Virus record (IMG/VR): IMGVR_UViG_2713896784_000031 | Origin: a virus | Lineage: Duplodnaviria; Heunggongvirae; Uroviricota; Caudoviricetes | Reading direction: 5' to 3' (one strand) | DNA length: 16,821 nucleotides | Shown: positions 11,820 to 14,191 of the stretch, piece by piece | Position numbering within the stretch: position 1 is the first letter of the stretch | Layout: each line of letters starts with the position of its first letter | The notes under the pieces: model-generated | Seen by the model: the letters and a program-made list of their open reading frames with translations, nothing else | Databases searched by the model: none | What the model was told of the DNA's origin: nothing | Translations under genes and position numbers: made by a program

Positions 11820-11973
11820 TGTTAGCGATACACATATCAATGTAGATAAATATGTATTGTGGTTAAAGTTTGTTCGACTGGTTGACGAATTCGTGAAATC
11901 CCCTAAAGATTAGGTTTACAAAAATAAAATTTTGCGTAAAGATGAGCGGAGTTTTAAGAGAGAGGGATACCTT

Positions 11974-12624
11974 ATGCCGTCTGAACAGAATCTCCAACCG
12001 TGTTTTGAAATCAATCCTTGTTTGGATGAAAAATCTGTTATCAATCTTCTTCAGCAATTTGCTAACGTACTTGGCGAATTATGGTTCCATCGCCATGAGT
12101 ATGATGATAACTGGATTAATGGATGTAGGGCCTATGGATGGATAAAAAACTTTCTTGTAAAAAATCATAAAAAACTCAAAGGAGTGGCGATTCTTTCAAC
12201 ACCTCTGAATTTTGTGTTTACCCTGAACAGGGTGCCGTTACAGTTTGTGACCGATAAACTGGATTCACCAAAAAAGAAACATCGCTTATGTAAAAATGAT
12301 GTTGAGTGTCGTCAGTTATCTCTTTTTGAAGATGATGTTAATTTTGAACATGATGTTACATGGCGTGTTCTGGCTGAAAAATTACCATCTGCAAATAAAA
12401 AAGATGAAGATATTGAACCTCCAACGTGGCTTTTAGCCCTGATAGGTTTTGATTCATCAAATAATGTAGTGAGTAGATACGAATTGGTGTCTAAAGTCCA
12501 TGCTCCAGTACAAGCAGCTAATACTGACGTATTGCCAGAGGCCGTGGAAACACCACCGCTGAATTTGCAGCGGCGTGTTAAGAATGCGAAAAAAGCAGAT
12601 AGTGATAAATATGGAACTATTTGA
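11974..12624 (+). CDS. Hypothetical protein of unknown function, 216 aa, first gene of an AT-rich cargo cassette (candidate toxin or effector)
   Basis: The ATG at 11974 has a GAGGGA ribosome-binding site at 6 nt; AT-rich codon usage unlike flanking phage genes; no motif I recognise; its 3' end overlaps the start of the next gene. Confidence 0.55.
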   Translation: MPSEQNLQPCFEINPCLDEKSVINLLQQFANVLGELWFHRHEYDDNWINGCRAYGWIKNFLVKNHKKLKGVAILSTPLNFVFTLNRVPLQFVTDKLDSPKKKHRLCKNDVECRQLSLFEDDVNFEHDVTWRVLAEKLPSANKKDEDIEPPTWLLALIGFDSSNNVVSRYELVSKVHAPVQAANTDVLPEAVETPPLNLQRRVKNAKKADSDKYGTI

Positions 12625-13732
12625 TTCTATAGGTAATTATCGTGGTGACTGCTTAAAATTAGCTCGTCAGGCTAAAGGGGTTACGGGCGAAGAGCTTGCT
12701 ACTGCTTTGGGGGTGACTCGGCAATTTATAAACAAGTTAGAGCGTGGTTATCCCCCTTCATCTCAGATGTTGACAGCTCTTGCAGATTATCTGGATGTTA
12801 AAGAGTCGTTTTTCTTCACTGGAAGGAAATCACCATTAGACAGCGAGAACTGCCATTTCAGAAGCAAGAGATCAAGGACGCAGTCCTTAACTAATAGTAT
12901 TCTGGCTCGAGCTGAAATTTTGGAGCAGTTTGTAAAGTGTTTGGAAACAGAAATAGTTCTTCCAGAATTGAACTTTCCTGATACGTCCGGATTACCTTTG
13001 AACTCCGATGAAGATATTGAAAGAATTGCCGAGGCCTGTAGAAGGTATTGGGGTTTGGGGCTGGGACCGATATCTTCAATGGTTAATTTCGTGGAAAGTA
13101 TTGGGGTTGTTGTTGCTCATGTATCTGGCGTGGATGATCGTATTGATGCGTTTACTATTAATAGTAAACGCCCATTGATAATTAGAAATTCCGCGAAAAA
13201 GAGTGTGTGTCGATTTCGCTCAGATCTCGGTCATGAACTGGGGCATCTTGTTTTGCATGAAGGGATTATAACAGGGGATAAAATTACAGAACATCATGCG
13301 GATTATTTTTCGAGCGCATTCCTTGTACCTAGAGTTTCGTTCGTTAATGAATTTCCTAAAATGCGAGGATCGCATCTTGACTGGAATGCACTAATTAATT
13401 TCAAAGAACGATGGAAAATCAGTCTTCGCATGTGTATTTATCGTGCTACGGTTTTGGGGCTGATTACGCCACAACAAATGAGAACGGGATTTATCCATCT
13501 AAATAAAAGAGGGACGATTAAAGGAGAGATGGGGGATGAGTTAATCCCTGAGGAAAAACCTCGCTTACTTTCCTGTGCAGTTGAATTGCTGGATATATCT
13601 TCTTGGAAGCAGATACTGGATATGTCGGGAGTGAGGGAACGCTTTGTTTCCAAAATGTTTGGAATAAGGCGCACACATGATGATATATCGAGTAATATTG
13701 TGCCTCTTTATAGATACAAAGACTTTGGTTAA
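12611..13732 (+). CDS. XRE-family HTH fused to an ImmA/IrrE-type (M78-like, COG2856) zinc metallopeptidase, about 373 aa
   Basis: N-terminal HTH (LARQAKGVTGEELATALGVTRQFINKLERG) and HEXXH motif HELGHLVLHE with the downstream acidic context typical of ImmA/IrrE peptidases. Alternative in-frame starts at 12575 (GTG), 12584 (ATG) and 12602 (GTG); I chose 12611. Confidence 0.8.
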   Translation: MELFDSIGNYRGDCLKLARQAKGVTGEELATALGVTRQFINKLERGYPPSSQMLTALADYLDVKESFFFTGRKSPLDSENCHFRSKRSRTQSLTNSILARAEILEQFVKCLETEIVLPELNFPDTSGLPLNSDEDIERIAEACRRYWGLGLGPISSMVNFVESIGVVVAHVSGVDDRIDAFTINSKRPLIIRNSAKKSVCRFRSDLGHELGHLVLHEGIITGDKITEHHADYFSSAFLVPRVSFVNEFPKMRGSHLDWNALINFKERWKISLRMCIYRATVLGLITPQQMRTGFIHLNKRGTIKGEMGDELIPEEKPRLLSCAVELLDISSWKQILDMSGVRERFVSKMFGIRRTHDDISSNIVPLYRYKDFG

Positions 13733-13843
13733 AATCATAATGGGTGCTTGAGGCTATCTGCCTCAGGCATGAACACCAAAAGGCAGATAGAGAAAAGCCC
13801 CAGTTAACATTACGCGTCCTGCAAGACGCTTAACATTAATCTG

Positions 13844-13893
13844 NNNNNNNNNNNNNNNNNNNNNNNNNNNNNNNNNNNNNNNNNNNNNNNNNN
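13844..13893. other. Run of 50 N (gap or mask) in the intergenic region downstream of the cassette
   Basis: Literal n characters. Confidence 0.99.
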
Positions 13894-13986
13894 CAGCTTA
13901 CGAACCTGAGGAGTAAGAGACCTGGCGGGGGAGAAATCCCTCGCCACCTCTGATGTGTCAGGCATCCTCAACGCACCCGCACTTAA

Positions 13987-14006
13987 CCCGCTTCGGCGGG
14001 TTTTTT
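13987..14006 (+). terminator. Rho-independent terminator (cccgc-ttcg-gcggg followed by T6) closing the cargo cassette
   Basis: GC stem with TTCG tetraloop followed by TTTTTT on the plus strand. Confidence 0.7.
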
Positions 14007-14191
14007 GTTGCGCGCTGAATGCGCAGGGTGAAAAATAACCATATATTTGATTATATACACAACAAAAAATAAAAGTCATTGTACCTGCACATTAAATAAT
14101 CAAATATACGGCGTGAAATAAATATTTTTCAGATTAATATTTTTGTCTCTATGTGGATATAACCGTTTGTACTTATAAACTCGGAGGCATC

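Follow-up and report, generated by a model that had tools for sequence, protein, structure and literature searches.

A probable three-module cargo region with a RosmerTA-type gene pair in a Rac-like prophage of Escherichia coli

Gene content of the low-GC stretch

The DNA analysed here (the window) is the 16,821-nt viral sequence IMGVR_UViG_2713896784_000031, and the subject of this report is a stretch of low guanine-plus-cytosine (GC) content around positions 11820–14150. The window belongs to a lambdoid prophage of the Rac-like type. Outside one masked stretch, it matches with 100% identity a prophage in at least 27 complete genomes (e.g. NZ_CP027388) of Escherichia coli, both Shiga-toxigenic (O157:H7, O103:H2 and others) and other strains. 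The low-GC stretch lies between the replication module, represented by a DUF977 gene, and the DUF1367, YbcO and Q-like genes. It probably represents a prophage cargo region assembled from three independent modules: a RosmerTA-type gene pair (rmrT and rmrA), a hok/mok/sok locus, and a small open reading frame (ORF) accompanied by an inverted repeat. This reading draws on gene content, domain architecture, family matches, module boundaries, rarity and a conserved cis element, each of which was observed directly. The features of the stretch are as follows.

11777–11787 (unstranded), left recombination junction of the Rosmer-specific segment, where homology ends in the M19 and PEC209 prophages
11880–11945 (+), tandem 33-nt element
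11974–12624 (+), rmrT, candidate toxin, 216 residues
12611–13732 (+), rmrA, candidate antitoxin/regulator, 373 residues
13707–13735 (+), promoter-like site TTTATA-17-TAAAAT, in the last codons and stop codon of rmrA
13742–14006 (+), hok/mok/sok type I toxin–antitoxin module, with hok leader, mok/hok coding part, 3′ fold-back and terminator
13985–14008 (+), intrinsic terminator hairpin AACCCGCTTCGGCGGGTT with T-run (stem 13985–14002)
14007–14475 (+), third module, an AT-rich spacer with an inverted repeat and a 70-residue ORF
14192–14404 (+), the 70-residue ORF, a member of the uncharacterised family phrog_1813

Alignment to the identical genomes indicated that a run of 49 N at 13845–13893 replaces 200 nt and hides most of mok/hok and the Sok target; window coordinates 3′ of this run are shifted by 151 relative to the real sequence.

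The rmrT–rmrA gene pair

The rmrT gene is preceded by a ribosome-binding site (GAGGGA). Its product matches the PADLOC RmrT model PDLC03929 (E=1.7e-18) and phrog_5786 (E=6.6e-72), and contains no Pfam domain. RmrA consists of an XRE helix-turn-helix (HTH) domain (HTH_3, residues 15–67, E=5.8e-13) and an M78/ImmA Zn-peptidase domain (Peptidase_M78, residues 162–279, E=5.6e-13), with the sequence HELGH in its translation, and matches phrog_2439 and, over its full length, the PADLOC RmrA model PDLC03943 (E=5.7e-107). The two genes are co-oriented and overlap by 14 nt, which suggests translational coupling, and the same layout is found in 10 homologous loci. As a co-oriented gene pair with an HTH-containing Zn-peptidase antitoxin, in which both proteins match curated hidden Markov models (HMMs), rmrTA is of the RosmerTA type.

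The resemblance to described RosmerTA systems (Millman et al. 2022; Ernits et al. 2023) extends to the toxin-first order of the two-gene operon, the HEXXH motif of the XRE HTH and M78/ImmA antitoxin, the match of both proteins to the PADLOC Rosmer HMMs, and carriage by a prophage, as for the system of Gordonia phage Kita. In contrast, RmrT of the window is unrelated both to RmrT of OLC-716 and to the membrane-depolarising toxin of Kita. Its family is very small: a word search yields 7 clusters, and 32 are found among 1.84 billion representatives.

Homologous loci were compared from Proteus mirabilis, Tenebrionicola, Raoultella, Yersinia, Xenorhabdus, Pseudomonas aeruginosa and three metagenome contigs. 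The rmrT homologues share 28–66% identity and are followed by an overlapping rmrA homologue in every locus examined; toxin and antitoxin sequences diverge in parallel. In the prophages of Proteus, Tenebrionicola and Xenorhabdus, the pair is located between early genes (replication or other) and a DUF1367 gene followed by a Q-like gene, and the Raoultella pair occupies a comparable late-early position upstream of NinG. The pair is also found outside prophages, in loci L015, L017 and L173. A search for related loci with RmrA alone returned identical loci only.

The AlphaFold model of RmrT has a predicted local distance difference test (pLDDT) score of 64, and neither Foldseek against viral structures nor a profile search of the PDB produced a match. 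Its near-invariant residues form no recognisable catalytic motif, and no transmembrane segment is apparent by eye on inspection of the sequence. Within rmrA, a perfect 24-bp palindrome (GCGTTTACTATT followed by AATAGTAAACGC, 13148–13171) encodes the peptide AFTINSKR. No other palindrome in the window is as long, and those in 200 shuffled sequences reach 20 bp at most; rmrA homologues retain the AFTINSKR peptide region but are only partly palindromic there.

A tandem element upstream of rmrT

The region upstream of rmrT contains two adjoining 33-nt units (unit 1, 11880–11912; unit 2, 11913–11945), so that the pattern GGTTGAC-N14-GCGAAAAGAT occurs twice. Each unit is composed of GGTTGAC or GGTTTAC, 14 nt, and (G)CG(A/T)AAAGAT. 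Viewed as promoters, the units would offer TTGACG and TTTACA as −35 hexamers, a 17-nt spacer and the −10-like hexamer AAAGAT. Two tandem units are present upstream of rmrT in 10 of 10 loci from seven genera and metagenomes, with a unit length of 34 nt in Pseudomonas. The ten-locus consensus is GGTTGACAAAt...aaAAaa.GCGAAAAgAT, in which the −35 hexamer reads TTGACA. The tandem pattern occurs once in the window and in none of 200 shuffled sequences.

Among 174 fetched loci, the tandem pattern was found in Rosmer loci only, plus one odd site in locus L007, the prophage of O157:H7 493/89. There, a tandem GGTTGAC...CCCGAAA(A/G)TT is present at 5029–5068 (−), on the opposite strand inside an annotated DUF551 gene, and could be a remnant, a coding 11-residue repeat, or a chance occurrence. 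Phage Tritos has a comparable tandem GGTTGAC, spaced at 31 nt, ahead of a different Rosmer subtype with an unrelated toxin and an RmrA that is 39% identical. These comparisons make the element a candidate for tandem promoters, operators for the RmrA HTH domain, or both. The passages of the RosmerTA literature available here make no mention of a tandem 33-nt upstream element.

The motif GGTTKAC-N14-GCGWAAAGAT was also used as a query. In viral contigs, 29 matches were obtained, five of which carry rmrT. In 596 Gb of genome contigs, none of the 120 loci among the matches listed contained RmrT or RmrA, and these matches appear to be chance occurrences; this second scan is uninformative because the pattern is too short for a collection of that size.

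The hok/mok/sok locus and its terminator

The hok leader begins at 13742, 9 nt after the end of the rmrA stop codon at 13732. The N mask covers most of the coding part; the hok stop codon lies at 13914–13916. The Rfam sok model RF01794 scores 60.9 bits in the mask-shortened window and 120.1 bits, over its full length, in the unmasked identical locus L001. In L001, a 51-residue Hok (6513–6668, labelled hokD by PGAP) is encoded inside a 70-residue Mok ORF (6456–6668); the NCBIfam Hok models match this protein below cut-off (49 bits versus 73). A simple scan of L001 called no minus-strand promoter for the Sok antisense RNA in the region. By reading of the sequence, GGGUGCUUGAGG near the 5′ end of hok is complementary to CCUCAACGCACCC near the 3′ end, and 5′ GGGTGCTTGAGG pairs with CCTCAACGCACCC directly before the terminator. 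The block is 95–99% alike across unrelated cargo contexts.

The locus thus resembles known hok/mok/sok loci (plasmid R1 parB; hokD/relF of Qin; hokW of 933W) in its full sok model match, Hok-in-Mok ORFs, 5′/3′ complementarity and terminator hairpin, and it precedes a DUF1367 gene as in phage Rac. It differs in that its coding part is masked in the window and that the 3′ end of rmrA stands where the usual promoter would be. In other prophages, the hok promoter is TTGGCA-17-TAGAAT, ending 7 nt before the leader; it is absent in the window, where homology stops at the first base of the leader. The site TTTATA-17-TAAAAT in rmrA likewise ends 7 nt before a G at 13743, at the start of the hok leader. 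Five promoter-like sites were called across 3.1 kb on both strands, and by our rough estimate the chance of one falling exactly there is of the order of 0.003. The hok gene may be expressed from this site, through transcripts running on from rmrTA, or in both ways.

No terminator was found between rmrA and hok, and the hok terminator at 13985 is the first and only one downstream of rmrTA. The canonical terminator reported at 13987–14006 in the original prediction is therefore present as a hairpin with a T-run, but it is the 3′ end of the hok mRNA rather than a terminator belonging to rmrTA.

Module boundaries and cargo slots

Boundaries were determined by BLAST comparison with nine related loci. 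On the left side, homology stops at the end of the DUF977 gene (about 11583), or at 11776 and 11786 in the M19 and PEC209 prophages. It returns at 13741–13742 with the hok block and stops again at 14005–14006. On the right side, it returns at 14423–14476, or is unbroken in prophages that have the third block. Module 1, holding rmrT and rmrA, extends from about 11787 to 13741.

The modules differ in distribution. Of 5426 complete E. coli genomes, 31 contain the rmrTA DNA, in each case with at least 99.7% identity and in this context. The block at 14000–14480 occurs in 175 genomes, whether rmrTA is there or not. The hok block is widespread; 4847 genomes matched the 3.5-kb query somewhere, most over a small fraction.

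The position of rmrTA (slot 1) holds other genes in related prophages: DUF551 genes in O157:H7 493/89, which has the third block without rmrTA; IS110 and DUF551 in M19; and in PEC209 an IS1 and an sce7726/"beta family" pair, the sce7726-family protein of which matches a PADLOC model. Other genes also replace rmrTA in phages vB_EcoS-666R9, Tritos and HannyBb. A second slot, 3′ of the hok terminator, contains a doc-type toxin–antitoxin pair in M19, an HTH and ImmA pair in AUSMDU00014361, and in phage Tritos the other Rosmer subtype mentioned above, with an RmrT of type PDLC03933. None of the related prophages examined had an empty site, each holding some other cargo, which argues for cargo replacement in a hot spot rather than simple insertion.

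On this comparison, the stretch is best described as three modules joined in mosaic fashion within a hot spot of two slots, rather than as one insertion. Alignment of homologous prophages, suggested with the original prediction as a way to define the insertion junctions, did reveal junctions, but they delimit three blocks of very different distribution instead of one. Compared with lambdoid morons and cargo hot spots (Juhala/Hendrix; P2/P4, Rousset et al. 2022), the arrangement is similar in that compositionally deviant accessory genes lie between conserved modules, their contents can be swapped among related phages, and the cassette brings a promoter-like element along. It differs from morons in having no single promoter–gene–terminator unit, in its two adjoining variable slots separated by hok/sok, and in the lack of an observed empty site.

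A 12-nt direct repeat is located near three module edges (GCTGAATGCCCA, 11802–11813; GCTGAATGCGCA, 14014–14025; GCTGAACACCCA, 14438–14449). As a general module-boundary motif, GCTGAATGCCCA was rejected, being absent from the edges of other cargo variants, and the repeat is probably not a general boundary signal.

Base composition

The original prediction that 11820–14150 is visibly lower in GC than its flanks is confirmed. Its GC of 0.400 is the minimum among all 2331-bp windows of the 16.8 kb (mean 0.465, standard deviation 0.028), and 0.3% of positions are as low. The value is 0.41 once the masked bases are restored from an identical genome, and the flanks have a GC of 0.515 (8829–11819) and 0.485 (14476–15904). 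Codon usage agrees, with a third-position GC of 0.29 for rmrT and 0.35 for rmrA, compared with 0.46–0.63 for neighbouring phage genes. The low GC is uneven and continues past 14150 to about 14475: module 1 has a GC of 0.39, the hok/sok block in the middle (265 nt; 416 nt unmasked) 0.53, and module 3 0.37. Other low-GC parts of the window are found at 601–2000 and 5201–6000 (0.37–0.41).

Homologous pairs are AT-richer than their flanks in both loci measured, with a GC of 0.34–0.35 against 0.38–0.39 in Proteus and 0.40–0.415 against 0.48–0.50 in Tenebrionicola. Therefore, low GC is a property of the cassette lineage.

A recurring hairpin and the inverted repeat

The 18-nt hairpin AACCCGCTTCGGCGGGTT of the hok terminator (window 13986) recurs in loci L002 (4238 and 5586), L008 (5647 and 6487), L017 (4774 and 6652), L005 (4291) and L016 (1462). 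It brackets differing cassettes on both sides (doc toxin–antitoxin, HTH and ImmA, and rmrTA in L017), and in L005, L016 and L017 it stands immediately before the Rosmer tandem element. In L017, a metagenome locus, rmrTA lies between two copies of the hairpin AAACCCGCTTCGGCGGGTTTT, one of them right after rmrA, forming a complete promoter–genes–terminator unit. The pattern of recurrence suggests that the hairpin AACCCGCTTCGGCGGGTT may serve as a homology anchor for cassette exchange.

The predicted 12-bp inverted repeat near 14043 and 14096 consists of exact 12-mers, ATATTTGATTAT at 14043–14054 and its exact complement at 14096–14107. Shuffled sequences average 0.16 matches, and one of 200 reaches two. 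The arms extend to 19 nt (14039–14057 and 14093–14111) with 89% complementarity. As an insertion scar of the island, however, the repeat is excluded by its location inside the third module, where it is present with or without rmrTA. Two minus-strand promoter-like sites (14050–14079, 10/12; 14103–14132, 9/12) lie within or beside the repeat and point leftwards to the hok terminator. The 70-residue ORF of the third module was considered as Rem of Rac/Qin, which was ruled out by the absence of similarity.

Other features of the prophage

Upstream of the island, the gene order is integrase, RalR/RalA, recET-like genes, DicF/isrK/C4, repressor and cro-like genes, ydaT, ydaU/V/W and DUF977. Downstream, the DUF1367, YbcO and DUF1133 Q-like genes are followed by a tRNA and AgvB. 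One further small ORF after DUF977 and several RNAs were identified.

11589–11819 (+), small ORF of 76 residues, phrog_27745; PGAP annotates 11620–11819 as a truncated pseudogene
1557–1735 (+), RalA antitoxin small RNA (sRNA) of the RalR/RalA type I toxin–antitoxin system, Rfam 219 bits, full length
6464–6929 (−), sRNA cluster of C4 antisense RNA (78 bits), isrK (69 bits) and DicF (55 bits)
16057–16116 (+), tRNA, 3′ of the Q-like gene; tRNA-Met in the annotation of an identical genome
16303–16364 (−), AgvB anti-GcvB sRNA, 96.5 bits, consensus-identical, 3′ of the Q-like gene

The small ORF at 11589–11819 is phage backbone, outside the island, and is counted as such because of its GC of 0.56; its last 33–43 nt extend past the homology break. 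The RalA sRNA lies within another low-GC part of the window.

Alternative interpretations

Several observations weigh against the interpretation of the stretch as prophage cargo with an active RosmerTA-type system. The match of RmrT to its PADLOC model is moderate (65 bits). The toxin of the verified RosmerTA system of E. coli OLC-716 is unrelated to it, and the experimental literature concerns other subtypes. The AT-rich promoter-like start of the original prediction gains support, in refined form, from the conserved tandem TTGACx-17-AAAGAT at 11880–11945 in the ten-locus comparison, but this element falls below the threshold of a generic sigma-70 scan, which called no plus-strand site in 11820–11973, and the −10-like AAAGAT is weak (3/6). 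Additionally, AT-rich DNA is often silenced by H-NS in E. coli.

The pair could mainly be a prophage addiction or stabilisation module, or a selfish toxin–antitoxin system, with no anti-phage role. This is unlikely, even though its toxin–antitoxin architecture with overlapping genes and its position next to a second addiction-type locus, hok/sok, fit such a role. Published accounts also fit: in three Pectobacteriaceae, rmrA is an essential gene and is linked to ClpXP (bioRxiv 10.64898/2025.12.09.693261), and ClpP or ClpX is essential where the system is present (10.1101/2020.05.25.114553; bioRxiv 10.64898/2025.12.09.693261). However, RosmerTA has been described as an anti-phage system of a Zn-peptidase antitoxin and an uncharacterised toxin, for which an rmrA deletion was not transformable (bioRxiv 10.1101/2022.05.11.491447), and another account has RmrA serving as antitoxin to a range of RmrT toxins and reports narrow defence by a Rosmer system carried on a phage (PMC10440598); by these accounts, the RosmerTA systems tested do protect against phages. 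The slots of related prophages also hold defence-type cargo, namely the PADLOC-matching protein and the doc toxin–antitoxin pair. Addiction and defence are compatible with each other.

A single recent moron, i.e. one insertion that brought promoter, genes and terminator together and has the inverted repeat as its boundary, is improbable. Low GC over most of the interval, the promoter-like element at the start, the terminator near the end and the bracketing of rmrTA by two AAACCCGCTTCGGCGGGTTTT hairpins in L017 would be expected of such an insertion. They are outweighed by the three homology blocks with their differing distributions (31 genomes, 175 genomes, and many for hok), the backbone-like GC of the hok/sok block and its ownership of the terminator, the occurrence of the inverted repeat without rmrTA (e.g. 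in O157:H7 493/89), and the failure to find an empty site. The original prediction of a horizontally acquired moron with its own transcription unit thus holds in part: the stretch is compositionally deviant accessory cargo with a conserved promoter-like element, but its unity is broken at about 11777–11787, 13742 and 14006.

A third reading, in which RmrA is an ImmA-like anti-repressor protease of the prophage induction circuit and the upstream gene encodes a partner of RmrA instead of a toxin, is very improbable. In its favour, the M78/ImmA domain takes its name from a protease that cleaves the ImmR repressor (PMC10440598), and a weak capP/capH similarity is present. Against it, a divergent repressor/cro-like region of the prophage itself lies at 7574–8332, far from the pair in the late-early cargo region; the pair also exists outside prophages, and the full-length match to the RmrA model is very strong.

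Proposed mechanism

For rmrTA as one of three cargo modules, a mode of action can be proposed from what is described for other RosmerTA systems; toxicity, neutralisation, autoregulation, defence and expression in the lysogen are all inferred by that analogy. The tandem element at 11880–11945 would drive constitutive, autoregulated expression of rmrT and rmrA in the lysogen. RmrA would neutralise RmrT and, by way of its HTH domain, probably also repress its own promoter. A second phage, on infecting the cell, would disable or deplete RmrA and free RmrT, which would then stop the cell, resulting in abortive infection. The hok/sok locus, joined 9 nt 3′ of rmrA, provides the sole terminator.

A more specific proposal is tentative, and its three parts are doubtful as a joint claim: that the tandem element (GGTTGAC...GCGAAAAGAT) is an operator–promoter bound by the RmrA HTH domain that travels with Rosmer cassettes whatever the toxin; that the hairpin AACCCGCTTCGGCGGGTT is a portable anchor for the swapping of cassettes on either side of hok; and that RmrT is a soluble enzymatic toxin, possibly restriction-endonuclease-like, rather than a membrane toxin.

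Significance

All three modules are known kinds of element, current concepts are unchanged, and standard defence-finder tools would flag the gene pair; the possibly new details are confined to the conserved tandem element and the cassette-bracketing hairpin. The locus adds to the RosmerTA family a putative RmrT subtype that is carried by prophages of Shiga-toxigenic E. coli, and its conserved cis element could be used for studying Rosmer regulation. It also shows that Rac-like prophages have, around hok/sok, a hot spot with two cargo slots, in which defence and toxin–antitoxin cassettes are exchanged.

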